The translations under genes were made by a program, and so were the position numbers. A DNA stretch of 64,000 nt from a phage. Numbering within the stretch: the stretch's first letter is position 1; each line of letters starts with the position of its first letter. This document shows, one piece after another, positions 3,610 through 63,555 of the stretch. The notes under the pieces are model-generated. The model saw nothing but the letters and a program-made list of their open reading frames with translations, did not search any database and was not told the origin of the DNA. Location of the stretch: the sequence record OZ346164.1; one strand, 5' to 3'.

Positions 3610-4125
3610 CTATTTAACCTCAAAAACTGGCTCAAGAACCAATATAAAGTCTACACAGTCATCTTCTTCATCCAGAACACCATCAAAGTTCTTAGGAACG
3701 AAGTCGAAGAGGCTCATAACAAAACAGTCAGAAGTGACCCTGATAGTTCCTCCCATGTTCTCTACAGTTAACACTGTACGACTTTCTTTTACCTCCCTCA
3801 GAAGATTACCCACAAAGTCATCCAAGAAGTGCTTCATCAGTGACTTAAAACCTTTAGGGTAATCTGTACCAGAGTATGTTTCAATCTGGGGAACAAGCTT
3901 AACATTTATACTAGTCTTTGTTAAGAATGTATTAGAGAACATACTATCAGGTAACTTACAAACAGTCTTTCCAGTACCTTCATGTTCAATCTCAACAAAA
4001 CCAGCTTCATCGCCACATGTAACTATTTTAAAAGATGCTTCATTCTCATACTGTGAAGCCATAAACTTTTTAAGCATCACTTTAAGGAAGTCTGCATGAG
4101 CATCTTGTAAGAAGATATCAATCAT
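3610..4125 (-). CDS. hypothetical protein
   Basis: 171 aa ORF in minus-strand operon, no recognised motif. Confidence 0.4.
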   Translation of the reverse strand: MIDIFLQDAHADFLKVMLKKFMASQYENEASFKIVTCGDEAGFVEIEHEGTGKTVCKLPDSMFSNTFLTKTSINVKLVPQIETYSGTDYPKGFKSLMKHFLDDFVGNLLREVKESRTVLTVENMGGTIRVTSDCFVMSLFDFVPKNFDGVLDEEDDCVDFILVLEPVFEVK

Positions 4126-8005: not shown

Positions 8006-8539
8006 TCAACTTAGTTTTGCAAACTCTCCGTGGAGTTTAATAGCAGCTTCACAGTAAGCTTTATGGGCTTCTTCAGGTGTGTCATGGTGACCTAAAAACA
8101 TCTTCTTACCTTTATAACTTATCTGTGCGACCCACTTACCAGACTTCTTCTTAAGACTTACACCCTTGTACCCAGATTTATTGGTGACCGGTTTACCTTT
8201 ATTCCAAGCACTTTGAAAATCATCTGCTTCCCTTAAGTTTACAATCCTGTTGTCAAGTGAGTCTCCGTTGATATGGTCAATGATACCTTTTGGCATCTTG
8301 CCATACACGTAAAGCCATGCGAGTCTGTGTGCTTTATGTGCTTTCTTGTCAAAATAGATACTAACCTGTTTATGACCACTTGAATCAGTCTGGATATTAC
8401 CTGCCACCTTTCCTGCATAATTACTGTTAAAAACACTAACAGCTCTTGATTTACCTTCTCTACGAAGCCAAGTAAAGACCCCTGTTTCGGGGTCATAGTG
8501 CAGCAGCTCCTTTAAACGTTTTTGTAAAATTAAATCCAT
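8006..8539 (-). CDS. HNH homing endonuclease with AP2 DNA-binding domain
   Basis: IDHINGDSLDNRIVNLR HNH_3-like motif and SGYKGVS...WVAQI AP2-like motif; paralog of 18378..18893 (shared YDPETGVFTW). Confidence 0.75.
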   Translation of the reverse strand: MDLILQKRLKELLHYDPETGVFTWLRREGKSRAVSVFNSNYAGKVAGNIQTDSSGHKQVSIYFDKKAHKAHRLAWLYVYGKMPKGIIDHINGDSLDNRIVNLREADDFQSAWNKGKPVTNKSGYKGVSLKKKSGKWVAQISYKGKKMFLGHHDTPEEAHKAYCEAAIKLHGEFAKLS

Positions 8540-8542
8540 TAA

Positions 8543-9097
8543 TCAATGTACCTCATACCAGCTCTTACCAACCTTTGCTGTACCAGTTACAAGTGTTTCT
8601 TTCCTCAAACCTAAGTTTTTTGAAGCTTGTCCATACATCCAGTCAGCAATTGCTTTCATATCATGTGTCATACCCTCTGGACATTCCCAACTATTTTCAT
8701 CGTGATATGCCAGAAGTAACCTTGCTCCGATAGCTGGTTTTCGAGCATTCAGTTTTGTCAGGCCATCTTCACAGGCTTTTCTTGCTGCTAGGTTGATGGC
8801 CTCATTCTGAATCTGTGCTTCCGAACTCATCAGGAGGTAGTTCAGTAGTTTATGTGGAGATTTGCACCATATCCATGCTCCAGCGACCCTGATATAACCA
8901 CCTTTAGCAATTGAAGAATTCTTCCCAAAAACCTCTTCCAGAGCCTTTTTAGACGCCTTAAAATCGGCTTCTAAGCTATCAAGTAACTTCTTAATCTTTG
9001 GCAGACGCATATAGTAAGTTTGTTTAGTCAATGCACCTTCTTCCGTAGATGATGCCTTGATAGTTTTTGCAAACTTCTCGTCTCCAGCCCCGAACAA
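8543..9097 (-). CDS. DNA polymerase (family A), exon 2
   Basis: Begins LFGAGDEKF (second half of motif B) and contains LLAYHDENSWE (motif C HDE). Confidence 0.7.
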   Translation of the reverse strand: MFGAGDEKFAKTIKASSTEEGALTKQTYYMRLPKIKKLLDSLEADFKASKKALEEVFGKNSSIAKGGYIRVAGAWIWCKSPHKLLNYLLMSSEAQIQNEAINLAARKACEDGLTKLNARKPAIGARLLLAYHDENSWECPEGMTHDMKAIADWMYGQASKNLGLRKETLVTGTAKVGKSWYEVH

Positions 9098-9326
9098 TAC
9101 ATCTGGTCAATACACTCGCAAGGTGTACCAGTTCTCTTATGAACTTCTCCGCATTTCTACGGAGTGTCGGACTATATCACGTAGCAGTGGTGCTACCGTT
9201 GCACTTGGGATGGTCATTAGCTTACCACCCTACTCTACTCAGTTCATACGTTAAGTATGCTTTTCGATAGTCTCTGAACGTTCCTCTTAAGAGGCTTCGC
9301 TGCTGATTACCATATCTTTACAGACT
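9098..9326 (-). other. group I-like intron in DNA polymerase gene
   Basis: Minus strand carries GTTCAGAGACTA (R-like) and GATATAGTCCG (S-like) core elements; splits motif B; no ORF. Confidence 0.6.
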
Positions 9327-11539
9327 TAGGCTTCCAGCAATTCACAACGTTTTACATGCGCCACTGACGCATAAATGCCATTTTTGGCTTTCTTACGACC
9401 TTTTGTAATCTCGTGGAGAAGTTCCTCATCCTGTGTCTCCCTACAACGAACAATGTCTTCTTCCTTGTTCAGACCAAAGTAAATACTATTCAGTGTATGT
9501 GCATCAGTACCTGTGTAGACTTCATAGAGGTCATTCTCAGCATCATAACGCAGATACTTGTCAGTTTCTGGGTTAAGATACTTGTCAAGATGCTTGCAGT
9601 AGTATCTACCATCATCTTGCTTAGTGAACTCAACTGACTCTTTACCCTCAGTTACCGCTTTAGTGAAGTCTTCATCACCCATAAAGTTACAAAGAAGAAC
9701 TAGCTGGGCTGAGTTTTGGTCTACAGAGACAACGTTAGTACCTTCTTCACAAATCCACACCTCCCTCATAGGTGCTCCATAGACAGCAGCACCAGACGGT
9801 ACGTTTACAATACCATATTGTGTCATACGTCCAGTTGAAGTACCAAACACCATTGCACCAGCACTAAGGCGACCATCAGGACGAATCTGGTTCAACCAAC
9901 CTTTTTCATCATCTTTTGAGTTCTCAATAGTTCTACGTCGGTGCATCAAAGTATAGTACTTAGCAATCTTCTGTCCAAGCTCACCTTCAATCGTATCATA
10001 AGATGATTCAGTAAGTTTTGGTGAAGTACGGATTAAGCAAGGCTCAAGCAAATCTGTGTATTTCTTCACAGACCAGTTATGCTCAATGTACTGGACACCT
10101 TCATGCTCAACATAGCTCAAACCACACCGCTCAACCATTTCCTGCCACTTAGGATGCTTTGTAATCATCTTTTTATTGTCTTTGAAACGACAAACTTTGA
10201 TAGGGCGACCATCTGAGTCTTTCTTGTAATTCCAGTCATCTGGAATCCAACCAACTGATTTCAAGTAGTCTTTAACAACTGCTACCTGAGTCATACGAGA
10301 AACTTCAAACTCAATTGGTGTATATGGTGCATCAATCAAACCTGTGTAGCGACTTGACTCAAGTTCAAAGTGGTTAACAACGTGGCTGTTATAGTACTTC
10401 ACAGTTTTGACTGTTTTTACTGGCTTCCAGTCTTTGCATTTCTTACCAATCTTTGCGTTCAACTCATTGCAAATTGCACGAGCATCCTTCATTGCTACAA
10501 AACCTTCCTTGTACTCTTCACCAGTTACAGAGTTGGTTGGTGTATAGCAATTCCTTTTTTCAATGTTAAAAATCTTTGTAGTTGGCTTACCAAATGGTTT
10601 GATTTCGTATGTCTGCATCTCACCATTACGTACCTGCTGACGATACTTTGTCTTAGGGTACTTGGTAATTCTTTTCAGTCCATCTGCATGACCAAATGTT
10701 TCAACATACTCATTCCAAGCTTTTGCAAACTCTTCTCCAGTGACTTTACCTTTGGTCTTAATAGTTGGAGGAAGATGTGGTTCAACCTCTGAAGCAAGCT
10801 CATTAGTCAACTTGTCAAGTTCCTTTACATGGAACTCCATAAGCTCTTTATCAGCTTTCCAACCATTAATAGCTTGTTGACTCATCCAGAAAGATGTTTC
10901 TTTAGCTCGCATGTAGGTTTCATAAGTGTCTATGCCACACTTCTTAAGCTTGAGATACTCATTATCAAGTGCCCGTTTAGTTTTGGCGTTAATACGGATA
11001 TCTTCTACAACACGAGTGAAGATTTCTGCATTCCACACACCCCAATGTTCAATCTCTGGTTTACGAACACCAACACGAGCACCCCATGCAGCCAAGCCAT
11101 GAGCACCTTTATAACCCTTTGGAGTTGGTCTATCCATCCACTGAACACGAGACTGGATAAGAGAATCCTGAAAGAAATTACTCCACGGCTTACACTTTGG
11201 ATTATCAAAGTTCCATAAATCCGGTGCAATGTGATTGAAAACCCACCAGTCATAACCTAGACCATTATGAATGCAAAGACGTTTTGCCTTTAACGCAAAC
11301 TCAACACCTTCACGTAAGCCACCCTTAATGTACTTGGTATACTTGTGACCGAGGATAGGCTCATCTGTAAAGACCCATACAGGCGGCTCTTTATCGTCAG
11401 ATTTATAGTCTGCGAAAGCCATTACGTGCACTTTAGTGAACTCAAGGAGTAAACCATCAGTTTCTGTATCACCAACTAAATGTAAGTTTTTAAAATCTAC
11501 GTTTTCCATTTTTACTCCCTCTAAAATCATTAACCTCAT
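9326..11539 (-). CDS. DNA polymerase (family A), exon 1 incl. 3'-5' exonuclease
   Basis: Exo I motif DTETDGL, motif A-like VSVDQNSAQLVLL, ends RKKAKNGIYA (first half of motif B); annotated stop probably lies in intron. Confidence 0.8.
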   Translation of the reverse strand: MRLMILEGVKMENVDFKNLHLVGDTETDGLLLEFTKVHVMAFADYKSDDKEPPVWVFTDEPILGHKYTKYIKGGLREGVEFALKAKRLCIHNGLGYDWWVFNHIAPDLWNFDNPKCKPWSNFFQDSLIQSRVQWMDRPTPKGYKGAHGLAAWGARVGVRKPEIEHWGVWNAEIFTRVVEDIRINAKTKRALDNEYLKLKKCGIDTYETYMRAKETSFWMSQQAINGWKADKELMEFHVKELDKLTNELASEVEPHLPPTIKTKGKVTGEEFAKAWNEYVETFGHADGLKRITKYPKTKYRQQVRNGEMQTYEIKPFGKPTTKIFNIEKRNCYTPTNSVTGEEYKEGFVAMKDARAICNELNAKIGKKCKDWKPVKTVKTVKYYNSHVVNHFELESSRYTGLIDAPYTPIEFEVSRMTQVAVVKDYLKSVGWIPDDWNYKKDSDGRPIKVCRFKDNKKMITKHPKWQEMVERCGLSYVEHEGVQYIEHNWSVKKYTDLLEPCLIRTSPKLTESSYDTIEGELGQKIAKYYTLMHRRRTIENSKDDEKGWLNQIRPDGRLSAGAMVFGTSTGRMTQYGIVNVPSGAAVYGAPMREVWICEEGTNVVSVDQNSAQLVLLCNFMGDEDFTKAVTEGKESVEFTKQDDGRYYCKHLDKYLNPETDKYLRYDAENDLYEVYTGTDAHTLNSIYFGLNKEEDIVRCRETQDEELLHEITKGRKKAKNGIYASVAHVKRCELLEA

Positions 11540-25175: not shown

Positions 25176-26375
25176 ATGAACAAAGTACAGATTATTAAAA
25201 AGAATGGCTCACTTGAAGAACCTGATATCAAAAAAGTTTTAGCAGCAGTCACAAAGTCAGCTAACAGAGTTGGTTATAAAGAGCTTCCACCAGATGTTAC
25301 TCAAGCTCTTGAGTCAGCATTTATGAGGATTCTGGTAAAGTCCACTAAGCAGAATAATTTGCTAATTTCGGTAAATGATATTCACAGTATTGTTGAGGGT
25401 GCTTTGGCAGAAGTCAATCACGAGATTTATGAGTCTTACTCAACATATAGAAATTACCGTAAAGAGGTTGCTCAAAATTGGGATGAACTCTACCAGAAGA
25501 CCAAAGATACACTCTTCTTAGGCGACCGAGAAAACGCTAATTTTGACAGCAGTTTAATTTCTACAAAAGGCTCAATTATTCGTGGTTACCTGACTAAAGA
25601 AATCTTTAAACAGTACCATTTAACACCAGAGGAACTTGAAGCCATTGAAAAAGGATTTATCTATATCCATGATTTAAGAGACCTAATTTTTGGTGGTATC
25701 AACTGTTGCCTGTTTGACATTGGTAAAGTCCTGAAAGGTGGCTTTGAAATGTCTGGCATTGAATATTGTGAACCGAAGTCTGTGCTGTCAGCCTTACAGG
25801 TTATTGGTGATGTAGTTCTTTCAGCAACTGCACAGCAATTTGGTGGCTTTACTTTAGCAGAGATTGATAAGGTACTTGTACCGTATGCTAAGAAGTCTCT
25901 ACGTTACCATGCTGAAAAAGCAACAGCTTATGGTATTCCTAAAGAACATTACCACAACTATGTCATGGAGCAGCTACAGATTGAATTAACTCAAGGTTTT
26001 CAGTCTCTTGAAATGAAGCTCAATACTGTGCCTTGTAGCCGTGGTGATTTTGCATTCACAACTTTGACATTCGGGTTACTTGACTCAGATATGTCTAATG
26101 AAGATAACCGACTGCAATACATGATTGCGAGCACTCTCCTAGATGTTCGTATGAATGGACAAGGTAAGAGCAAGAAACCTGTTGTATTCCCTAAACTGGT
26201 TTATATTTATGACCAGAAGAGACACAATGAGAATATCTGTCAAGGCCACCTGTACAGTAAAGCTATTGAGTGTTGCTCTAAAGCTATGTATCCAGATTTC
26301 TTAAGTGTATCTGGACATGGTGCTGTAGCAGAGGCTTTTGAGCGTTCTGGCAAGGTAATTTCCCCGATGGGTTAA
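25176..26375 (+). CDS. nrdD: anaerobic ribonucleotide reductase, exon 1
   Basis: ATP-cone N-terminus; reading frame interrupted, resumes at 26678. Confidence 0.75.
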   Translation: MNKVQIIKKNGSLEEPDIKKVLAAVTKSANRVGYKELPPDVTQALESAFMRILVKSTKQNNLLISVNDIHSIVEGALAEVNHEIYESYSTYRNYRKEVAQNWDELYQKTKDTLFLGDRENANFDSSLISTKGSIIRGYLTKEIFKQYHLTPEELEAIEKGFIYIHDLRDLIFGGINCCLFDIGKVLKGGFEMSGIEYCEPKSVLSALQVIGDVVLSATAQQFGGFTLAEIDKVLVPYAKKSLRYHAEKATAYGIPKEHYHNYVMEQLQIELTQGFQSLEMKLNTVPCSRGDFAFTTLTFGLLDSDMSNEDNRLQYMIASTLLDVRMNGQGKSKKPVVFPKLVYIYDQKRHNENICQGHLYSKAIECCSKAMYPDFLSVSGHGAVAEAFERSGKVISPMG

Positions 26376-26677
26376 CAAGCTCTATAGCTCATCTAAAACG
26401 TGCCTAAACAGGGAAACTCTACAGATGTAGACAATCCTGTGCTAAATGATGTACGATGTAAGAAACTATACAACATAGGAGTCTTACATGCCAAATAACT
26501 TCGAATATGAGTTTGAATACATCTAAATGCCGAACGACTAACCGTGATGAATGTAGCGGTGTAGGGTCAAGCGACTCGAAATGGTACGCTACTTAGAAAT
26601 AAGTAGAAGATATAGTCTGGACTTACTGGCGACAGTAAGCAGCTTGAATAAAGCGGGGTAAGCTTAGCGAACTTACT
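26376..26677 (+). other. group I-like intron in nrdD
   Basis: About 300 nt without ORF, contains CAGGGAA/ATCCTGT (P4-like) and GACTAACC/AGATATAGTCT (P7 R/S-like) elements. Confidence 0.6.
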
Positions 26678-27636
26678 TGAACAACAAGTGTAGAGCATTT
26701 TTATCACCATACCATAACGAACATGGTGAAGAGTTTTATGTAGGTCGTGCTAACATTGGTGCTGTATCTTTGAACTTACCAATGATTTATCAGTACACCA
26801 AAGAGAATGGCTTAGATTTCTGGAAAGAGCTTGATAAGTACCTAGAAATGATTCGCAGCTTCCACAAGAAACGTTACGAAATGATTGCTAATATGCCAGC
26901 AAGTTCTAACCCTCTTGCATTCACACAGGGTGGTCTGTACAAAGGGAATAAGAAACCTACTGACAAGGTTGGCTGGGATATCGTGAAGTCCTTCACAGCT
27001 TCTTTTGGGGTTACTGCGCTTGATGAGCTATCTGTTCTTGCTGAAGGTAAACGACTCCATGAAGTTGGAAGCTGTAGTTTTGCATATGATGTTCTGGCAT
27101 ACATTAACATGAAAACTGAAGAGTTTAAGAACGAAGATGGCTTCTTGTATGCGGTATATGGCACTCCAGCAGAATCACTTTGTGGAACTCAGTTAAAACA
27201 GTTCAGAGATATGTTTGGCGTTATTAAAGGTGTCTCTGACAAGGAATACTTTACAAACAGTTTCCATATGAATGTTGCAGCAGACATCTCACCATTTGAG
27301 AAGCAGGACTTAGAAGAGCCATTCTTCCATATCTGTAGAGGTGGTAGAATCCAGTATGTAAGGGTAGCTAACCCAGAAAACTTAACAGCACTTAAAAGTT
27401 GTATTACAAGAGGGATGTTGAAAGGTTTCTATCAGGGGCTTAACTTTGACTTAGCAATCTGTGAACATTGTGGTAACAGACCAAAGGCTGATGTTGAAGA
27501 ATGTGAGGTTTGCCATTCACATGATATCTCTGTGATTAACAGGGTGTGCGGGTACTTGTCATTCACAAAAATTAAAGGTCAGTCTCGAATGAATGACGCT
27601 AAGATGGCAGAAATTAAGGATAGGGTTTCTATGTAA
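26678..27636 (+). CDS. nrdD: anaerobic ribonucleotide reductase, exon 2
   Basis: C-terminal glycyl-radical motif RVCGYLSF and Cys4 zinc site CEHCG...CEVCH. Confidence 0.8.
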
Positions 27637-28688: not shown

Positions 28689-29174
28689 ATGAATTACATG
28701 GAGATTAGACCATTCGATACATCTAATGGTGAAGGGGTTCGTGTAAGCCTCTTCGTAGCTGGTTGTAAGCATCACTGTGAAGGCTGCTTTAACAGGGAGT
28801 CTTGGAAGTTTAATGCTGGTAAAGTATTTACTTATGCAAACTTCTACGGCATCATTAAGTTAATGGATGATGATGCTGTCAGTGGGCTGTCAATACTTGG
28901 TGGAGAACCTCTGGATGATAGAAATATTCAAGAGGTTACCAACATATGCAAACGTATTAAAACCGTTTACCCAGAAAAATCTATCTGGCTCTGGACAGGT
29001 TTTCAGTTACACGAAAAAATTCACCTAGATGTGATGAAATATGTTGACGTGGTGATTGATGGTAAGTATGATTCATCTAAACCAACAGTTAAACCATATC
29101 GTGGTTCTGATAACCAAAACCTCTGGAGAAAAGAGTATGGATGGCAAGGCGATTGTCAATGGCGAGCAGAGTGA
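28689..29174 (+). CDS. nrdG: anaerobic ribonucleotide reductase activating protein
   Basis: Radical-SAM-like Cys cluster CKHHCEGC near N-terminus; follows nrdD. Confidence 0.7.
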   Translation: MNYMEIRPFDTSNGEGVRVSLFVAGCKHHCEGCFNRESWKFNAGKVFTYANFYGIIKLMDDDAVSGLSILGGEPLDDRNIQEVTNICKRIKTVYPEKSIWLWTGFQLHEKIHLDVMKYVDVVIDGKYDSSKPTVKPYRGSDNQNLWRKEYGWQGDCQWRAE

Positions 29175-58630: not shown

Positions 58631-58708
58631 TCTCTGTTTAGCTCAGCTTGGTAGAGCGTTCCGTTTGGGGCGGTAAGGCCGGAGGTTCAAGTCCTCCAAC
58701 AGAGACCA
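58631..58708 (+). tRNA. tRNA-Pro (anticodon UGG)
   Basis: 7 bp acceptor, D stem GCTC/GAGC, loop TTTGGGG, T arm GGAGG-TTCAAGT-CCTCC. Confidence 0.75.
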
Positions 58709-58715
58709 AATTAAT

Positions 58716-58793
58716 GTTCCAGTAGACAAAATGGTATAGTCACCACTCTTTCAAAGTGGATATCTGAGGGTTCAAATCCCTTCTGGAACGCCA
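58716..58793 (+). tRNA. tRNA-Glu (anticodon UUC)
   Basis: Acceptor GTTCCAG/CTGGAAC, anticodon stem CCACT/AGTGG, loop CTTTCAA, encoded CCA. Confidence 0.75.
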
Positions 58794-58883
58794 GTTTTGA
58801 CAGAAGACCAATTACAGCAAACTTAATCTACTCATCTGAAAGTTAATCGGACAAAGAAGATATTTGGTCTGGTCATTAAGAAT

Positions 58884-58960
58884 TGCGGGTATAGAGAAAG
58901 GGCGTCTCACATGTCTCATTAGCATGGTATCGGCAGGTTCGACTCCTGCACCCGCCTCCA
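58884..58960 (+). tRNA. tRNA with anticodon CAU (Met or Ile2), 1-72 mismatch
   Basis: Loop CTCATTA, T arm GCAGG-TTCGACT-CCTGC, acceptor pairs 2-7 only. Confidence 0.6.
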
Positions 58961-59042
58961 AATTTACAGAAGACCGTTTACAGCAATATTTATTAAATTT
59001 TTAGCGGAAAAATTGAAAGATACGGTCTGGTAATACTAAATA

Positions 59043-59120
59043 TGGTTAGGAAGCACATAAGGTATGTGCGGTCGCCTGTTAAGCGAATGGCACAGGGTTC
59101 GAATCCCTGACTAACCGCAA
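59043..59120 (+). tRNA. tRNA-Asn (anticodon GUU)
   Basis: D stem GCAC/GTGC, loop CTGTTAA, T arm CAGGG-TTCGAAT-CCCTG. Confidence 0.7.
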
Positions 59121-59128
59121 AATTAAAT

Positions 59129-59216
59129 GTGTCGTTATCCCGTAGATGGTAGCGGTGGGGACTGTAAATCCCTTGTCATTGAGACTCGGTAGGTTCGACT
59201 CCTACACGGCACACCA
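59129..59216 (+). tRNA. tRNA-Tyr (anticodon GUA), long variable arm
   Basis: Acceptor GTGTCGT/ACGGCAC, loop CTGTAAA, about 15 nt variable arm, encoded CCA. Confidence 0.75.
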
Positions 59217-59221
59217 ATAAA

Positions 59222-59298
59222 GGCTATGTAGTTTAACTGGAGAAAATACTCCCCTGTCACGGGAGATGATGTGAGTTCAAGTCTCATCGTAGCCGCCA
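59222..59298 (+). tRNA. tRNA-Asp (anticodon GUC)
   Basis: Acceptor GGCTATG/CGTAGCC, stem CTCCC/GGGAG, loop CTGTCAC, encoded CCA. Confidence 0.75.
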
Positions 59299-59499
59299 AT
59301 TTTGAGAGGGCTATTTAGCCCCTCCCTTAAAGAGTTCTTACGAGTATTCTTTAAAGGAGCAGAAGACCAAATACAGCAAGAATGTATGATATTTTCAAGC
59401 CAATTCAATTTTGAAAAATTTAAAACTTGGTCTGGCTCAACAAATTTACAGAAGACCGTTTACAGCAAAACTTAAACAATCTATTTCTCGGTAAAGAAA

Positions 59500-59540
59500 A
59501 GGCGAAGGTTCGATTCCTTCACTCGGCAGAGGTCGAGTTG
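59500..59540 (+). ncRNA. tRNA-like T-arm plus acceptor minihelix (not a full tRNA)
   Basis: GAAGG-TTCGATT-CCTTC T-arm-like hairpin directly followed by ACTCGGC-AGAG-GTCGAGT hairpin and D-loop-like GTTGGTGTAATGGTAG. Confidence 0.4.
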
Positions 59541-59730
59541 GTGTAATGGTAGCACTTAAGATGATAAACAACGGTCTGGTAATTATCTTTGCAGTAGCTT
59601 ATGTGGCTAATTATGTCGTCCCATGAGTGCCGATGAATTTCCTTAGCATGATTCTAGATTAGCTTAATAGGAAATGACTCTACAGACCCTTTAGCAAGGT
59701 CTGCGTAGGTTACTGCAAAGATGATTTAAT

Positions 59731-59806
59731 GGAAGTGTAGCAGAATGGTGATGCGGCAGACTTTTAATCTGACAGGCGATGGGTTCGAATCCCTCCACTT
59801 CTACCA
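59731..59806 (+). tRNA. tRNA-Lys (anticodon UUU)
   Basis: Acceptor GGAAGTG/CACTTCT, loop CTTTTAA, TTCGAAT T-loop, encoded CCA. Confidence 0.65.
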
Positions 59807-59811
59807 AAAAT

Positions 59812-59888
59812 GGTTCAGTCGCAGATAAGGTAATGCAAGGGTTTCATAAGCCCTATGAATGTGGGTTCGATTCCCATCTGAACCTCCA
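59812..59888 (+). tRNA. tRNA-Met (anticodon CAU)
   Basis: Acceptor GGTTCAG/CTGAACC, stem AGGGT/GCCCT, loop TTCATAA, encoded CCA. Confidence 0.7.
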
Positions 59889-59890
59889 AT

Positions 59891-59966
59891 GCTGTGAAAG
59901 CACATATGGATGTGCATTCGGCTGATAACCGAAAGGCAGAAGGTTCGAATCCTTCTCACAGTACCA
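59891..59966 (+). tRNA. tRNA-Ile (anticodon GAU)
   Basis: Stem TTCGG/CCGAA, loop CTGATAA, T arm GAAGG-TTCGAAT-CCTTC, encoded CCA. Confidence 0.75.
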
Positions 59967-59982
59967 ATTTCAATAAAGTTGT

Positions 59983-60010
59983 TGACATTAAGATGTGACT
60001 ACTTTATAGT
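59983..60010 (+). promoter_or_regulatory. sigma70-like internal promoter in tRNA cluster
   Basis: TTGACA, 16-17 bp spacer, TATAGT. Confidence 0.5.
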
Positions 60011-60214
60011 AACCTTAGTTTTCGTTGCGTAGCGTCTATTTTGCAAATTTAAAATAAATGCAAACGACAATGTTTTTCTGGCAGTAGCTTGATAGGCTAA
60101 ACACCAGTGAGGTCTTCCAATCCCTCATCAAAGAATTTGGCGTACTCGCCCACGGTATGATTAATAAGGTGGGCATCTTTAAGGGCTTTCTAATAGAGTC
60201 TTTAAAGATAATTA

Positions 60215-60296
60215 CGGGGCGTATCTCAGCGGTCTTCTAAACCGCCGTTAACCGAGTAAGTGGAGTATGCGGGTTCGAGTCCTGCCGCCTCGACCA
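60215..60296 (+). tRNA. atypical tRNA-like gene, possible anticodon UCU (Arg)
   Basis: Good T arm and acceptor (CGGGGCG/CGCCTCG, CCA encoded) and GCGGT-CTTCTAA-ACCGC anticodon-like hairpin, but D-arm spacing non-canonical. Confidence 0.35.
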
Positions 60297-60439
60297 ATTT
60301 AGTTAGCAGATTACTTAGACGACCTAAGCGGGTCTTCCTGTAGGGAGGTGGTCTGTATCTCATGTTTTCCAGAACATGTAAATAATCTGAGAAGGGGCTT
60401 TACAGTGTTGAGATAATACGGTAAGCTTCGAATTATAGT

Positions 60440-60522
60440 ATGGGACGATGTTAAGACTCTAAGGCATGAGCAACGGCCTCCAAAACCGTTTCAAAGGGGT
60501 TCAACTCCTCCGTCCCATGCCA
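60440..60522 (+). tRNA. tRNA-Trp (anticodon CCA), enlarged D region
   Basis: Acceptor ATGGGAC/GTCCCAT, loop CTCCAAA, TTCAACT T-loop, CCA encoded; about 7 extra nt in D region. Confidence 0.5.
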
Positions 60523-60535
60523 AAGTCTTATTAGG

Positions 60536-60623
60536 GGTAGGTAGCGGCTAATGGCAGCCAAACAGTCTTGAAAACTGTTGCCACTGTAGAGATACGGTGA
60601 GGGTTCGACTCCTTTACTTACCG
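60536..60623 (+). tRNA. tRNA-Ser (anticodon UGA), long variable arm
   Basis: Acceptor GGTAGGT/ACTTACC, stem ACAGT/ACTGT, loop CTTGAAA, about 20 nt variable arm. Confidence 0.7.
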
Positions 60624-60881
60624 CCTAATAAGATTTTAAAGCCAAGCTTCATTCGGATGTCGCTTTGGTATCCCTCGTGTATTGTCGTACACACTGATAA
60701 AACACCTAGTAGGTGTCACGGAGAAGAGATAATATCAAGCTCTCCAAAGGTTCTAGTCACCGGATTAAACAAGACTATGCAAAGACCTTTTTAGGTCTTT
60801 TTAGAGGGCTTCTAAGGTTATTACAGCTTGTTGTGGAACCTTGTTGCTTAGGTTCTTAGAAGTTCTCTAAAAAGATTTAAT

Positions 60882-60958
60882 GCACCTATAGCCCAACTGG
60901 TAGAGGCAGCAGACTTAGAATCTGCTCAGTGTGAGTTCGAATCTCTCTAGGTGTACCA
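60882..60958 (+). tRNA. tRNA with Leu anticodon UAG but short variable arm
   Basis: Stem GCAGA/TCTGC, loop CTTAGAA, discriminator A, CCA encoded; only 5 nt variable loop. Confidence 0.55.
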
Positions 60959-60965
60959 AATTAAT

Positions 60966-61041
60966 GCAGGTGTAGCAAAATGGTTATGCGGCTGACCCTT
61001 AATCAGTAAGACGATGGGTTCAATTCCCTCCACCTGTACCA
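60966..61041 (+). tRNA. tRNA-Lys (anticodon CUU), tentative
   Basis: Acceptor GCAGGTG/CACCTGT, loop CCCTTAA (C at position 33), CCA encoded. Confidence 0.5.
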
Positions 61042-61047
61042 AACAAT

Positions 61048-61123
61048 GGGGTCATAGTTTATATGGTTAAAATTCGAGTTTTGCAAACTTGGGAACTGAG
61101 TTCAATTCTCAGTGACTCCACCA
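61048..61123 (+). tRNA. tRNA-Ala (anticodon UGC)
   Basis: Acceptor GGGGTCA/TGACTCC, loop TTTGCAA, T arm CTGAG-TTCAATT-CTCAG, CCA encoded. Confidence 0.7.
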
Positions 61124-61129
61124 ATTAGT

Positions 61130-61204
61130 GCATCCATAGTTTAAACGGGAAAATTACAGTCTTCCAAACTGAGGTTGAGGGTTCGATTCCCTCTGGATGC
61201 TCCA
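61130..61204 (+). tRNA. tRNA-Gly (anticodon UCC)
   Basis: Perfect acceptor GCATCCA/TGGATGC, loop CTTCCAA, T arm GAGGG-TTCGATT-CCCTC. Confidence 0.8.
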
Positions 61205-61211
61205 AATTAAT

Positions 61212-61287
61212 GCTCCTATCGTATAATTGGTTATTACGGTTGCCTTGTAAGCAACTTATCAGGGTTCGAGTCCTTGTGGGAGCACCA
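61212..61287 (+). tRNA. tRNA-Thr (anticodon UGU)
   Basis: Stem GTTGC/GCAAC, loop CTTGTAA, TTCGAGT T-loop, CCA encoded. Confidence 0.8.
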
Positions 61288-61290
61288 ATT

Positions 61291-61380
61291 CAGAGGTCAA
61301 GTGAAAGACCGCTTTGAGTCAACTGAAGACCGTAACAAATTCCACGAAGTTGAGTTAGCGGCACAACTTCAGACCTCTTT
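61291..61380 (+). ncRNA. long structured hairpin element between tRNAs
   Basis: CAGAGGTC ... GACCTCTT closing stem around about 75 nt containing GAAGACCG motifs; no T-loop. Confidence 0.35.
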
Positions 61381-61383
61381 CAT

Positions 61384-61458
61384 ACTCGCTTAGTTTATAT
61401 GGTAAAACATCACCCTTACAAGATGAAGAAAAAGGTTCAAGTCCTTTAGTGAGTACCA
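61384..61458 (+). tRNA. tRNA-Val (anticodon UAC)
   Basis: D stem GTTT/AAAC, loop CTTACAA, T arm AAAGG-TTCAAGT-CCTTT, CCA encoded. Confidence 0.7.
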
Positions 61459-61459
61459 T

Positions 61460-61537
61460 GTTCCAGTATCCCAATTGGCAGAGGATGCAAGCTCAAACCT
61501 TGTATTAGTGACGGTTCGAATCCGTCTTGGAACACCA
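61460..61537 (+). tRNA. tRNA with Leu anticodon CAA but short variable arm
   Basis: Stem GCAAG/CTTGT, loop CTCAAAC, T arm GACGG-TTCGAAT-CCGTC, discriminator A, CCA encoded. Confidence 0.55.
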
Positions 61538-61542
61538 ATTTT

Positions 61543-61618
61543 GCAGGATTAGTTCAAATGGATAGAGCAACAGTCTACGAAGCTGCTAATAGGGGTTCGA
61601 ATCCCTTATCCTGCGCCA
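61543..61618 (+). tRNA. tRNA-Arg (anticodon ACG)
   Basis: Perfect acceptor GCAGGAT/ATCCTGC, D stem GTTC/GAGC, loop CTACGAA, CCA encoded. Confidence 0.8.
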
Positions 61619-61637
61619 ATTTAAAGAGGCTATTTAG

Positions 61638-62195
61638 ATGAGATATTTGAAGTATGCTTCATGGATTTTCTTAGCTTTGTTAGAGCCATTTGCAGCAATC
61701 TTAGCAGTTATCTTAGCACCTTTTGTAGTTCCATTCTACAGTGAGAAGAAAGGGCACTTACCTTTCGGGTTCAGATGGATGGAGACATATGACAACCCAA
61801 TTGATGGTGATGAAGGTCACGTTAAAAGATGGGCTAATATTAGATGGATTGGTAAACTAGGTGTCTACATGCAAAGAGTCGGATGGCTCTGGAGAAACAA
61901 AGCTTATAACTTCTCTTACCATGTATTAGGAAGAGATGTAAGAGATGTTACTAAGTGGAAAGGTAATATCAACGTAAGTTCTGACCCCGAAGATAATCAG
62001 ACAGGTTATCTCCTAATGTGGAACAGTAATGCTTGGGGATTATTCGCTTTTATCCCATCAATTAAAATCTTTGGTAAACAATTTTACTGGAGAATTTATA
62101 TTGGATGGAAACTAAAAAGTGTTGTCCCAGAAGAAAGAGCATTCTCAAGGGAAAGAGTTATGTTGGCATTCTTTATTCATCCACTGAGAAAGTAA
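61638..62195 (+). CDS. membrane protein encoded inside tRNA cluster
   Basis: 185 aa, hydrophobic N-terminus, Trp-rich. Confidence 0.45.
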   Translation: MRYLKYASWIFLALLEPFAAILAVILAPFVVPFYSEKKGHLPFGFRWMETYDNPIDGDEGHVKRWANIRWIGKLGVYMQRVGWLWRNKAYNFSYHVLGRDVRDVTKWKGNINVSSDPEDNQTGYLLMWNSNAWGLFAFIPSIKIFGKQFYWRIYIGWKLKSVVPEERAFSRERVMLAFFIHPLRK

Positions 62196-62203
62196 AGATT
62201 TAA

Positions 62204-62279
62204 AGGGGATTAGTTTACAAGGTTAAAACCTCGGTCTTTGAAATCGAAGAAGTTGGTTCAATTCCAACATCCCCCGCCA
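62204..62279 (+). tRNA. tRNA-Gln (anticodon UUG)
   Basis: D stem GTTT/AAAC, stem TCGGT/ATCGA, loop CTTTGAA, T arm GTTGG-TTCAATT-CCAAC. Confidence 0.7.
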
Positions 62280-62281
62280 AT

Positions 62282-62360
62282 GCTCCATTACTCCAATTGG
62301 CAGAGAGGCCAGACTTAAAATCTGTGTTATGTATCGGTTCGAATCCGATATGGAGTACCA
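62282..62360 (+). tRNA. tRNA with Leu anticodon UAA but short variable arm
   Basis: Loop CTTAAAA, T arm ATCGG-TTCGAAT-CCGAT, discriminator A, CCA encoded. Confidence 0.5.
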
Positions 62361-62365
62361 AATTT

Positions 62366-62441
62366 AGCGGTATAGCATAACTGGCAATGCAGCAGCCTCT
62401 GAAGCTGTCCTATTAAGGTTCAAATCCTTATGCCGCTGCCA
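62366..62441 (+). tRNA. tRNA-Gln (anticodon CUG)
   Basis: D stem GCAT/ATGC, stem GCAGC/GCTGT, loop CTCTGAA, T arm TAAGG-TTCAAAT-CCTTA. Confidence 0.65.
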
Positions 62442-62472
62442 CTTCTAAGGATTCTTGCGAGAGTCCTTAAAT

Positions 62473-62548
62473 GTGGCCTTATCATAAACGGTAATGACCC
62501 ATGCTGTGAACATGGTCTATACGGGTTCAAATCCCGTAGGTCACCCCA
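62473..62548 (+). tRNA. tRNA-His (anticodon GUG)
   Basis: D stem TCAT/ATGA, stem CCATG/CATGG, loop CTGTGAA, T arm ACGGG-TTCAAAT-CCCGT. Confidence 0.8.
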
Positions 62549-62553
62549 ATTTA

Positions 62554-62630
62554 TAGTCCAAGTAGCTTATATGGTTAAAGCGCGTGTCTGAAAAACATGA
62601 GAAGAGAGTTCAAATCCCACTGGACTACCA
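62554..62630 (+). tRNA. tRNA-Phe (anticodon GAA)
   Basis: Acceptor TAGTCCA/TGGACTA, stem CGTGT/ACATG, loop CTGAAAA; T stem weak. Confidence 0.6.
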
Positions 62631-62646
62631 ATTTCAAAGGTGCTTA

Positions 62647-63381
62647 ATGAAAGAGATGACAGAACAAGGTAAGGAGATTTTTAATCTCTTAAAAACTGGT
62701 AAAGGGTTCTCTAACCCGCTTATTACTGGTGCAGCAGTTCTCGGTGGAACCGTAGCTGCCTCTACATCACTTGTAAGCTCTATTAGTTCTGTAACAGACC
62801 CTACAATGAAGGAGAAGCTTGTTGCTGCTGGACTTACAACAGTCCTTCTAAACAGCTTTACAACAAGCCTGACAAGCACTACAGCAACCACTAAGACCCT
62901 AACAGACTATGGTCAAAAGTCTATTGATGAGTTTTCATCACGTATGCAGGTAGCAAAGGGATACTCCAATGTTATGGGTGCAGCAGGAGAACAAGTTGGT
63001 TGTACACCATTCAGTGGTATTATGGGTGTTGCTACAGAATATGGTCAAAAAGCTATTGATACGATTAACAGTACACTAGAGAGTGTTAATGGTGTGTTAA
63101 GTGACTTACAAGATGCTATTGATAAGGGTCTTGATACTGTTTCTGATTTAGCTAATCAGGCTGTTAGTAAGATTAATGAAGGTATTTCAAAGATTACAGC
63201 TTATGCAGATGAAGTTGTGCAGATGATTGAAGAAGAAGCTGCCCTTATTGCAGAGTACCTTAAAACGAATATCAATGGGTTCTTAGCAGGTATCTTACCA
63301 GACTGGTTTGATGATGCTTGTAAAACTGGTGTAATCGACACTATTGCAACACCAGAAATGAAGAACGCATTGCAGAAATAA
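62647..63381 (+). CDS. hypothetical protein encoded inside tRNA cluster
   Basis: Start moved to Met after tRNA-Phe (track start 62584 overlaps the tRNA); Ser/Thr/Ala-rich helical protein. Confidence 0.45.
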   Translation: MKEMTEQGKEIFNLLKTGKGFSNPLITGAAVLGGTVAASTSLVSSISSVTDPTMKEKLVAAGLTTVLLNSFTTSLTSTTATTKTLTDYGQKSIDEFSSRMQVAKGYSNVMGAAGEQVGCTPFSGIMGVATEYGQKAIDTINSTLESVNGVLSDLQDAIDKGLDTVSDLANQAVSKINEGISKITAYADEVVQMIEEEAALIAEYLKTNINGFLAGILPDWFDDACKTGVIDTIATPEMKNALQK

Positions 63382-63382
63382 T

Positions 63383-63475
63383 GGAAGATTAACCCTAAAA
63401 GGTAAGGGAGCAGTTTGCTAAACTGCCAGTAGCTGAGAAATCGGTGTACCAGTTCAAGTCTGGTATCTTCCTCCA
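63383..63475 (+). tRNA. tRNA-Ser (anticodon GCU), long variable arm
   Basis: Perfect acceptor GGAAGAT/ATCTTCC, stem GCAGT/ACTGC, loop TTGCTAA, long extra arm. Confidence 0.75.
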
Positions 63476-63480
63476 ATTTT

Positions 63481-63555
63481 GAATCCGTGACAGAAATGGA
63501 TATGTGCCTGTCTGCAAAACAGGTTTATAAGGGTTCAAGTCCCTTCGGATTCTCC
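63481..63555 (+). tRNA. tRNA-Cys (anticodon GCA)
   Basis: Perfect acceptor GAATCCG/CGGATTC, stem CCTGT/ACAGG, loop CTGCAAA, CCA encoded. Confidence 0.8.

Follow-up and report, generated by a model that had tools for sequence, protein, structure and literature searches.

The nrdD gene of this phage, a Felixounavirus (Felix O1-like myophage), is very probably interrupted between Gly399 and Cys400 by a phage group I intron of subgroup IA2 that entered by homing and later had its endonuclease gene deleted; we place the probability of this reading at about 0.9. The putative intron is a 316-nt element at 26373..26688 of the window (the whole 64,000-nt stretch of DNA that was analyzed) and, like all nrdD features described here, lies on the plus strand. 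Its assignment draws on a match to the Rfam model RF00028, on intronless alleles of the same gene, and on P1 and P10 pairings with the exons.

In the ORF list, nrdD occupies two reading frames, 25176..26375 and 26677..27636, with a spacing of 301 nt, in agreement with the gap of about 300 nt reported in an earlier reading made from the letters of the window (the sequence-only reading). The uninterrupted Felix O1 allele sets the end of exon 1 (25176..26372; 399 codons); exon 2 spans 26689..27636 (315 codons plus stop). These exon limits, 26372 and 26689, give the intron a length of 316 nt. Exon 1 encodes the ATP-cone and the N-terminal half of the NrdD barrel, matches the ATP-cone profile and positions 1–250 of Pfam NRDD, and ends in CCG AUG GGU (Pro-Met-Gly399). 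Exon 2 begins with the UGU codon of Cys400 and matches NRDD positions 264–560 and Gly_radical. The joined protein of 714 residues aligns without a gap over the junction with the solved NrdD structures 9d3x and 1h78 and is 97.5% identical to the uninterrupted NrdD of Felix O1. Cys400 aligns with Cys290 of T4 NrdD, and the radical glycine, Gly687, aligns with T4 Gly580; we take these T4 residues to be the catalytic cysteine on the finger loop and the glycyl-radical glycine, respectively. The motif RVCGYLSF does lie in exon 2, as had been claimed, at 27541–27564, and the same exon carries the zinc-ribbon cysteines (27460 and 27502; CEHC and CEVC at residues 657 and 671). With its NRDD domain, finger-loop cysteine, zinc-ribbon cysteines, and glycyl-radical motif, the host gene has the features of a class III ribonucleotide reductase, NrdD. 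Compared with Felix O1, 93 codons differ synonymously and 18 non-synonymously, and this synonymous excess, together with the gapless alignment to solved structures, indicates that nrdD is a live gene. Most public Felixounavirus records give nrdD as two separate "ribonucleotide reductase" CDSs or as a pseudogene-like feature, whereas the nrdD CDS of MH586731 is annotated as joined; the public two-CDS annotation should be read as one spliced NrdD of 714 residues.

The covariance model scan proposed in the sequence-only reading returns a match to RF00028 of 54.6 bits, which exceeds the gathering cutoff of 50 by 4.6 bits only (E-values of 4e-11 over the whole 64,000-nt window and 5e-13 over an 801-nt stretch). 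The Rfam alignment puts P1/P2 at 26258–26300, within exon 1, and was dropped as a guide to the splice sites; these are instead set by the Felix O1 allele, which has no intron, and by P1/P10 pairing. The intronless nrdD genes of Felix O1, wV8, ASO1B, and Citrobacter HP1 all join precisely at 26372/26689. A three-way MAFFT alignment of nrdD alleles proved misleading; because it misplaced exon 2 of Felix O1, the junction was read straight from the sequences. The intron so delimited opens with UAA, an in-frame stop immediately 3′ of the splice junction, and its last base is G26688 (omega-G).

At the 5′ splice site, the exon strand of P1, AUGGGU (26367..26372), pairs at 6 of 6 positions with 26387–26392 (GCUCAU), with a U·G wobble (U26372·G26387) at the site itself; this helix is also present in the unconstrained MFE fold. 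GCUCAU is the 3′ part of a contiguous internal guide sequence, GCUCUAUA followed by GCUCAU (26379..26392), that serves both P10 and P1. The 5′ part of the guide (26379–26386) is the P10 strand and pairs at 8 of 8 positions with the start of exon 2 (26689–26696, UGUAGAGC). The U·G pair in P1, the terminal G, and a P10 to the 3′ exon are the end rules of group I introns.

Between these ends lies a complete core. Pairing, the MFE fold, and covariation all identify the 5′ strand of P3 (26399–26404), P4 (26408–26413 with 26435–26440), and the P5 hairpin (26418–26422 with 26427–26431), and pairing and the MFE fold identify P6 (GC at 26441–26442 with GC at 26529–26530) and P6a (26448–26453 with 26518–26523). 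The P6 region (26441..26530) contains a UAAAU/UAAAU internal loop in common with the T4 nrdD intron and a loop that holds the remnant of an endonuclease gene. The 3′ half of the core (26536..26617) runs from one strand of P7 to the other (26536–26540 with 26613–26617), with J8/7 preceding the 3′ strand; P7 is recognized by pairing and is invariant among the homologues compared. Within this half, pairing and covariation identify P7.1 (26541–26544 with 26557–26560), P7.2 (26564–26577), the 3′ strand of P3 (26583–26588), and P8 with its GAAA loop (26589–26606). The remainder (26622..26688) consists of the P9 hairpin with a GCGA loop (26622–26639; pairing and MFE fold), a peripheral 3′ hairpin (26641–26664), and a tail, UAGCGAACUUACUUGAACAACAAG, that reaches 26688, ends in omega-G, and resembles the tails of the td and nrdD introns of T4. 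When folded without constraints, the MFE structure (z = −3.71) contains P1, P3–P6a, P7.1, P7.2, P8, and P9. Both pairings singled out in the sequence-only reading are real: CAGGGAA with ATCCTGT is P4, and GACTAACC with AGATATAGTCT contains P7. The lack of P2, the presence of P7.1 and P7.2, and homology to T4 introns point to subgroup IA2.

Covariation was counted over seven homologues, in an alignment assembled from trimmed cores and with a structure partly derived from the same sequences. In the core helices, 99.2% of cells pair, and 16 of 37 pairs have changed on both sides; none of 500 shuffles was as good, and slid controls pair at 33–40%. Changes on both sides affect 5 of 6 pairs in P3, 2 of 6 in P4, and 1 of 3 in P5, and P7.1, P7.2, and P8 each carry compensatory changes. 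P7 and P6 are invariant among the seven homologues and are therefore neither supported nor contradicted by covariation. The group I core helices, including the P3/P7 pseudoknot, are all present in the nrdD intron, with P7 and P6 uninformative in this count. The MAFFT core alignment is partly unusable, with the loops of the P5, P7.2, and P8 hairpins out of register; the count used only outer base pairs adjacent to conserved anchors, and full helices were tabulated by hand. Four distant introns (navn intron 1, F95 intron 1, T4 nrdB, and the RNA polymerase intron of a Pseudomonas jumbo phage) were omitted because fixed cut points missed their P3.

The fold, together with the established behavior of the T4 introns, suggests how splicing would proceed. 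The P3–P9 core would form in the pre-mRNA, and P1 would bring the guide GCUCAU together with the AUGGGU that ends exon 1, leaving the U·G pair at the splice site. A free guanosine bound in P7 would then attack 3′ of U26372. With the start of exon 2 held by the guide GCUCUAUA in P10, G26688 would take the place of the guanosine in its binding site, and ligation would yield the predicted junction CCGAUGGGU/UGUAGAGC, read as Pro-Met-Gly-Cys-Arg-Ala in the 714-residue NrdD. On unspliced RNA, translation would halt at the intron-initial UAA and give a 399-residue fragment with neither the active-site cysteine nor the glycyl-radical domain. The sequence-only reading had likewise held that this is a group I intron and that splicing is needed for an active enzyme, a view that the covariance match, the intronless allele, the P1/P10 pairings, and covariation all favor. 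That the intron would be catalytic we infer from its structure. A splicing experiment on this nrdD intron, in any phage, was not found in the literature searched.

The same reading had described the gap as having no ORF. In substance this holds, as the gap contains only ORFs of fewer than 50 residues, but one of them is what is left of an endonuclease gene. Alignment with phage Mushroom identifies a remnant of an HNH homing-endonuclease gene at 26456..26526. An 8-bp hairpin (26456–26463 with 26482–26489) surrounds its ribosome-binding site, GGAG (26478–26481), and start codon, and a 12-codon stub ORF follows at 26488–26526 (MPNNFEYEFEYI and stop). Relative to Mushroom, an in-frame deletion of 426 nt, with its junction at about 26493/26494, has removed codons 3–144 of a 154-residue HNH ORF; the stub retains, in frame, ATG CCA and the final 10 codons plus stop, along with the ribosome-binding site and hairpin. 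The intact ORF of the relatives matches Pfam HNH_3 and is located in the loop of P6. Because the endonuclease gene is reduced to this stub, the nrdD intron of the window encodes no homing endonuclease and probably cannot move by itself.

The distribution of the intron suggests past mobility, within the genus and also outside it, where the Vequintaviruses HMD-6 and navn and Vibrio phage F95 carry it with a homologous HNH gene at the corresponding xMG/CRx site. It is present in 94 of about 230 Felixounavirus-type records and absent in about 130; for the 60 intron records listed in full, the counts are at least 37 with the HNH gene and at least 23 without it. Intron copies are 98.4–99.7% identical among the matches listed, and their exon backgrounds differ by 4–6%. 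The initial 54 nt of exon 2 (26689..26742) form a haplotype common to the four intron-derived alleles compared (window, Mushroom, EC6, and ST11); the exceptions are a single base at position +34 and, in ST11, the loss of 9 nt. Compared one by one with four alleles that have no intron (Felix O1, wV8, ASO1B, and Citrobacter HP1), the haplotype shows 11–15 differences. On the exon 1 (5′) side, the same comparison revealed no intron-linked haplotype. The nrdD site has both the presence/absence polymorphism and the linked exon marker of a mobile intron. From this allele comparison, homing driven by an endonuclease would have brought the intron into Felixounavirus nrdD, along with about 54 nt of foreign exon sequence from its 3′ side. 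The HNH endonuclease encoded in the loop of P6, whose activity and target are putative, would have been the driver. The 426-nt in-frame deletion would later have removed the endonuclease from the window phage and its ORF-less relatives, leaving a predicted-spliceable intron that could spread only via general recombination or the endonuclease of a coinfecting relative. The exon 2 haplotype could also reflect endonuclease-site immunity or simple linkage instead of co-conversion.

Three other explanations of the interrupted gene were considered. The insert could be dead and NrdD assembled from two polypeptides without splicing. Functional unspliced split ribonucleotide reductase genes are documented, the precedent being Aeromonas phage Aeh1, in which the mobE endonuclease gene divides nrdA, a case cited in PMC3653736 and PMC7344957; the two nrdD CDSs annotated in most GenBank records would also fit. 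Exon 2, however, has neither an ATG nor a Shine-Dalgarno sequence, and the sole upstream in-frame start is a TTG at 26677, within the intron tail. The break comes immediately before the catalytic cysteine and cuts one NRDD domain in two, between positions 250 and 264 of the profile. The insert has a full group I core, above the Rfam cutoff in score and kept by compensatory changes, and is 98–99.7% conserved although the exons drift. Assembly from two polypeptides is thus very improbable. An artefact of sequencing or assembly, with an nrdD frame that is truly continuous, was raised in the sequence-only reading as a possible refutation and has no data in its favor; the identical 316-nt insert occurs in dozens of independently sequenced phages, the 742-nt version, whose HNH gene is intact, occurs in dozens more, and the insert shows full ribozyme architecture. 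A continuous frame on resequencing is refuted by these recurrences, and we consider an artefact scarcely credible.

It is also possible that the intron is decaying, such that the P6 deletion impairs splicing and nrdD is effectively a pseudogene in the window phage. The endonuclease gene is already gone there, and nrdD is dispensable for aerobic laboratory growth. The ST11 allele (GGGT-TAA-TTTTTATC) has lost the intron together with the Cys-Arg-Ala codons and keeps an in-frame TAA; if this is no assembly error, a broken nrdD is tolerated. Against such decay, the deletion is confined to the loop and spares P6, P6a, and every core helix, which fold unaided. Splicing of the T4 td intron is unaffected when its loop ORF is taken out. 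The 316-nt form is found in at least 23 records with diverged exon backgrounds and intact exons, and the 93 synonymous versus 18 non-synonymous exon differences also oppose loss of function. We regard impaired splicing as very unlikely, and favor an nrdD interrupted by an intron that would still be removed from the RNA.

The sequence-only reading had counted this as the second intron of the window and proposed an active population of introns and endonucleases. The other ("first") intron is real, matching RF00028 with 61.7 bits at 9147..9429 on the minus strand. Enumeration of the splice sites of the DNA-polymerase intron was too ambiguous, as frame and U/G rules left 147 solutions; the junction was settled via P1 pairing, a motif B reading, and a search for intronless alleles. 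The proposed population is borne out to the extent that the genus is polymorphic for the nrdD and DNA-polymerase introns, but the nrdD intron of the window has lost its HNH gene. General knowledge of group I introns is unchanged by the nrdD intron, which is an ordinary feature; the interruption was already remarked on in the genome announcement of Felixounavirus Meda (PMC6486253). The Felixounavirus nrdD site does show three stages of the homing-endonuclease cycle: empty, occupied by an intron with endonuclease, and occupied by an intron without it. Felixounaviruses grow readily and serve in typing and biocontrol, and this site, with same-site introns in unrelated phages, makes a handy natural system for intron spread and decay.

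The closest counterparts are in the Felixounaviruses Mushroom, Si3, Alf5, and Meda, whose nrdD intron occupies the identical site and is followed by the same exon 2 haplotype. Outside the ORF, the Mushroom-type intron is about 99% identical to that of the window, but it is 742 nt long with an intact 154-residue HNH_3 gene, compared with 316 nt in the window. For phage SPJ41, "two introns" were counted by Rfam. The Vequintaviruses HMD-6 and navn and Vibrio phage F95 have an nrdD intron at the same site (SMG/CRS, YMG/CRS) with the guide GCUCAU and, as in the Felix-type relatives, a homologous HNH gene in P6. Their cores are only 75–79% identical, with many compensatory changes; their HNH frame extends into the J6/7–P7 core, and they have additional introns elsewhere in nrdD.

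The T4 nrdD (sunY) intron with I-TevII shares the host gene and the IA2 ribozyme family (no P2; P7.1 and P7.2 present), with a core 77% identical to that of the window intron; their 3′ tails also resemble each other. The introns of T4 nrdD, HMD-6, and F95 use the very same P1 guide, GCUCAU, and the 5′ exon hexamers are nearly identical, AUGAGU in T4 nrdD versus AUGGGU in the window phage. The T4 nrdD junction had four ORF-scan candidates and was settled as AYE/YEV via the sequence of PDB 1h78. The comparison of junctions called for in the sequence-only reading gives different positions: the T4 intron splits codon 180 (AYE/Y/EVN), and the window intron lies about 119 codons downstream, although the ribozymes are homologous. 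The T4 nrdD endonuclease, I-TevII, is a GIY-YIG enzyme encoded toward the 3′ end, in the P9 region; that of the Felix-type intron is an HNH enzyme encoded in P6, and the window copy encodes neither. With a different position and a different endonuclease type, the window intron was rejected as an orthologue of the T4 nrdD intron at the same homing site. The GCUCAU ribozyme type occupies two nrdD sites (T4 codon 180 and the catalytic Cys codon in the Felixounavirus, Vequintavirus, and Vibrio phages) with unrelated endonucleases. We tentatively suggest that it could have moved by ectopic transposition via P1 complementarity (reverse splicing), with independent endonuclease capture and with the 316-nt form as a "loss" stage, a scenario that is possible but more doubtful than not. 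The T4 td (I-TevI) and nrdB (I-TevIII) introns reside in other host genes. Both have the same IA2 core, which in td is 73% identical to that of the window intron, and td differs in having a P2 helix. Like the Felix-type intron, both the td and nrdB introns carry the endonuclease ORF in the P6 loop, and the HNH gene of the nrdB intron is internally deleted in T4, paralleling the deletion in the window intron.

The anaerobic ribonucleotide reductase gene nrdD lies in the window as two open reading frames on the plus strand, 25176..26375 (399 aa) and 26677..27636 (319 aa, counted from a TTG start), between which an ORF scan finds only ORFs shorter than 50 aa. This split, the ORF-less gap and the motif RVCGYLSF in exon 2, now located at 27541-27564, had been described correctly in the sequence-only reading. 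Pfam, the Felix O1 protein and structure alignment show that the two frames are halves of a single gene. The first matches the ATP-cone and, in the NRDD profile, positions 1-250; the second matches positions 264-560 of NRDD together with Gly_radical. When 25176-26372 is joined to 26689-27636, the product is a 714-aa NrdD with 97.5% identity to the uninterrupted NrdD of Felix O1, and its alignment with the solved NrdD structures 9d3x and 1h78 runs straight across the junction (...ISPMG/CRAFLSPY...) without a gap. Codon differences from Felix O1 (93 synonymous and 18 non-synonymous) show the window gene to be under purifying selection. The neighbors, with nrdB, a glutaredoxin and a small ORF upstream and nrdG downstream at 28689-29174, are compatible with Felixounavirus, the genus of Felix O1-like myophages that infect Salmonella and E. 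coli, to which nearly all of the 320 phage records matching the nrdD region in a DNA search belong (top matches 97% identical).

Judged from its sequence, the insert between the halves is a group I intron, and its ends can be placed to the exact base. A covariance scan of both the whole window and an 801-nt stretch gives an Rfam RF00028 match at 26258..26639 that exceeds the cutoff (54.6 versus 50 bits); the 3' two-thirds of this alignment (P3 to P9) are sound, and its 5' part is wrongly placed in exon 1. A junction query made of the spliced exon ends (200 + 200 nt) is found as a single unbroken 400-nt piece in Felix O1, wV8 and many others. Felix O1 reads CCGATGGGT/TGCAGAGC at the junction, and the window reads CCGATGGGT, 316 nt of insert and then TGTAGAGC. 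Because the Felix O1 allele is uninterrupted where the window has this insert, the intron ends are placed at 26373-26688, which makes U the final base of exon 1 and G the final base of the intron. The guide GCUCUAUA/GCUCAU, contiguous at 26379-26392, pairs 6/6 with AUGGGU at the end of exon 1 (P1, with U26372·G26387 at the splice site) and 8/8 with the bases that open exon 2, UGUAGAGC (P10). Unconstrained, the MFE fold of 26361-26700 yields P1, P3, P4, P5, P6, P6a, P7.1, P7.2, P8 and P9 at -94.5 kcal/mol, compared with -74.6 ± 5.4 kcal/mol for shuffles (z = -3.7). The two helix pairings quoted in the earlier reading are P4 and P7.

Homologues were gathered by distant DNA search, and the set comprises the same-site nrdD introns of Vequintavirus HMD-6 and Vibrio phage F95, the T4 nrdD, JK45 nrdD and T4 td introns, and the terminase intron of Aeromonas phage 4L372XY. 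With loop ORFs trimmed, all helices can be placed in the same order with standard pairs in 7/7 sequences, apart from two exceptions: F95 has an A·G in P7.1, and 4L372XY has a one-base bulge in P9. Changes on both sides relative to the window occur in P3, P4, P5, P7.1, P7.2, P8 and P9; P7 and P6 are invariant across the set and therefore uninformative for covariation. In our own MAFFT alignment of these cores, for which the structure was partly derived from the same seven sequences, 99.2% of cells are paired, 16 of the 37 pairs are changed on both sides, and none of 500 shuffles equals any measure. Sliding the 3' partners by 1-3 columns as a control leaves 33-40% of cells paired. The proposed group I intron in nrdD is thus borne out by RF00028, intronless alleles, P1 and P10, fold and covariation, and it adds another member to the IA2 introns of phages, a well-known family.

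The conserved fold, the guide pairings and the exact boundaries are direct observations, as is the fact that the exons, once joined, have their coding capacity intact. By established group I intron chemistry, guanosine would attack after U26372, P1 and P10 would align the exons, a second reaction would occur at G26688, and the exons would be ligated. The intron begins with UAA in frame with exon 1, so ribosomes would stop at the splice site and not enter the core, and unspliced RNA would give a 399-aa fragment lacking both the catalytic Cys and the radical domain. A split nrdD that needs no splicing to work, on the model of Aeh1 nrdA, is unlikely given that exon 2 has neither an ATG nor a Shine-Dalgarno sequence, that the break falls at the catalytic Cys within a single domain, and that what separates the halves is a conserved ribozyme. 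A reading in which nrdD is dispensable and holds a decaying intron that does not splice is disfavored, as the core and the exons are intact and the 316-nt form recurs on several backgrounds. That the nrdD frame is really continuous and the break an assembly artifact, a possibility raised in the sequence-only reading, is excluded by dozens of independent records with the insert.

The group I intron that we favor has a longer counterpart in many relatives, including Mushroom, Si3, Alf5 and Meda, where it measures 742 nt and holds a 154-aa ORF within P6 (Pfam HNH_3, E = 1e-10). The window intron is this form minus 426 nt. Its deletion region reads ATGCCA/AATAAC...TAA, with a 2-nt AA microhomology at the junction, and it retains the GGAG ribosome-binding site, an 8-bp hairpin around this site and the start codon, and, in frame, the first two HNH codons and the last ten plus stop (the stub MPNNFEYEFEYI, ending in the stop, at 26488-26526 on the plus strand). 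Because both ends of the HNH gene are present, and a never-invaded intron would have neither, the ORF-less form is derived by deletion. P6 and P6a still close around the remnant in the MFE fold. The T4 td intron splices normally after ORF deletions, and because these leave splicing intact, we expect the ORF-less window intron to splice; it would now be immobile unless a co-infecting relative provides the HNH enzyme.

The junction query matches ~230 records, 94 of which carry the intron at ≥95% identity and ~130 an uninterrupted nrdD, these counts being estimates from search summaries that include duplicate RefSeq/GenBank entries. Among the 60 matches listed in full, at least 37 records have the HNH gene and at least 23 the identical 316-nt ORF-less form, and all intron copies are 98.4-99.7% identical. 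The intron is far more uniform across phages than nrdD itself: the ORF-less introns of EC6 and the window are 99.4% identical and the exons 94.3%, the same distance as that of the exons of intronless Felix O1 (94.4%). Over the first 54 nt of exon 2, the sequence is linked to the intron: four intron-derived alleles (window, Mushroom, EC6 and ST11) have a common haplotype, varying only by a single base at +34 and by 9 nt that ST11 lacks, and intronless Felix O1, wV8, ASO1B and Citrobacter HP1 show 11-15 differences each from this haplotype. On the exon 1 side, the final 100 nt of the compared alleles show no such linkage. Such a one-sided tract would be the expected trace of co-conversion during homing; alternatively, it could hold the endonuclease recognition site, with immunity changes in intron-bearing alleles, and the data fit both readings. 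The nrdD of ST11 (MF370225; ~240-260 of that sequence, L018) reads GGGT-TAA-TTTTTATC: nearly the whole intron and 9 nt at the exon 2 start (Cys-Arg-Ala) are missing, the first three intron bases are left as an in-frame stop, and the flanks have the intron-linked haplotype. Either the intron was really deleted here, imprecisely and with loss of nrdD function, or the sequence is misassembled. Sequence of Felixounavirus nrdD or DNA polymerase, 89-99% identical, also occurs in MG065664/MG065668 ("Campylobacter phage A132/A126") and in GU169904 ("Staphylococcus phage SA1"), which are named for unrelated hosts and are probably mislabeled or contaminated records.

The other group I intron in the window is also real (RF00028, 61.7 bits). 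It interrupts the family A DNA polymerase gene within motif B (...AKNGIYA/LLFGAGDEKF...) on the minus strand, where we set its boundaries at 9100-9366 (267 nt, ORF-less; P1 AUGCGU/GCGCAU); exons 9367-11539 and 8543-9099 join to a 909-aa polymerase. The spliced polymerase junction is a single unbroken piece in Felix O1, HY02 and CRP22 and has a 267-268-nt gap in other Felixounaviruses, so the genus is polymorphic for this intron as well. Directly downstream of exon 2, a 177-aa ORF (8006-8539, minus strand) looks by eye like a free-standing HNH/AP2-like homing endonuclease (...HRLAWLYVYG...IDHINGD...). At the window end, 24 tRNA matches (RF00005; 2/24 barely above threshold) cluster at 58632-63553 on the plus strand, in agreement with published counts of 18-23 tRNAs in Felixounaviruses.

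The Felix O1 paper describes its phage as intron-free (PMC3185647), which is correct for Felix O1. The Meda announcement describes an HNH endonuclease interrupting the anaerobic reductase large subunit and another intron, lacking an HNH gene, in the DNA polymerase gene (PMC6486253), and the SPJ41 paper counts "two introns" with the non-coding RNAs of that phage (PMC9951933). In MH586731, nrdD is annotated as a joined CDS, and most other records give two separate proteins or a misc_feature. Our literature search turned up neither a splicing experiment on the nrdD intron nor an account of its structure or evolution. Already noticed in a relative, the intron is not surprising; its use lies in annotation and in the neat illustration that it gives of the homing cycle.

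The same nrdD site is occupied in Vequintaviruses HMD-6 and navn (SMG/CRS) and in Vibrio phage F95 (YMG/CRS), with the same guide as in the window and a homologous HNH gene in P6; all three have additional introns elsewhere in nrdD. The gene is in at least three pieces in F95 (724-1884 and 2390-3220 of L004) and navn (383-692 and 946-1697 of L011), each with another group I-like intron farther upstream of the Cys-codon intron, in navn after ...LTSVNG, by our count ~10 codons downstream of the T4 nrdD site. F95 nrdD is also annotated as split, gap-free, at 3803/3804. Close relatives of the window core lie in the terminase large-subunit gene of 4L372XY (Aeromonas; L012 ~1420-1802) and the jumbo-phage RNA polymerase beta-subunit gene of HUST_1 (Pseudomonas; L013 ~1344-1682), in records without intron annotation.

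The window ribozyme is a clear relative of the T4 nrdD (sunY) intron, with 77% core identity, about as close as to other family members (73-79%). The two have an identical P1 guide, GCUCAU, both lack P2, both have a UAAAU/UAAAU internal loop in P6, and the 3' tail UAGCGAACU..UGAACA resembles that of T4. The insertion sites, whose comparison the sequence-only reading had suggested, differ: the T4 intron interrupts codon 180 (AYE/Y/EVN; located by ORF scanning and confirmed with the protein sequence of PDB 1h78), equivalent to window residue ~280 in the protein alignment, whereas the window intron lies between Gly399 and Cys400. Window Cys400 and Gly687 align with T4 Cys290 and Gly580; by structural work on T4 NrdD, Cys290 is the finger-loop cysteine that carries the thiyl radical, and Gly580 is the radical glycine. 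The window intron thus sits at the most conserved catalytic codon, a typical position for phage introns. The endonucleases differ as well: that of T4 nrdD is I-TevII, a GIY-YIG enzyme whose gene begins past P9, at intron position 236, whereas the Felix-type nrdD intron has its HNH gene in loop P6.
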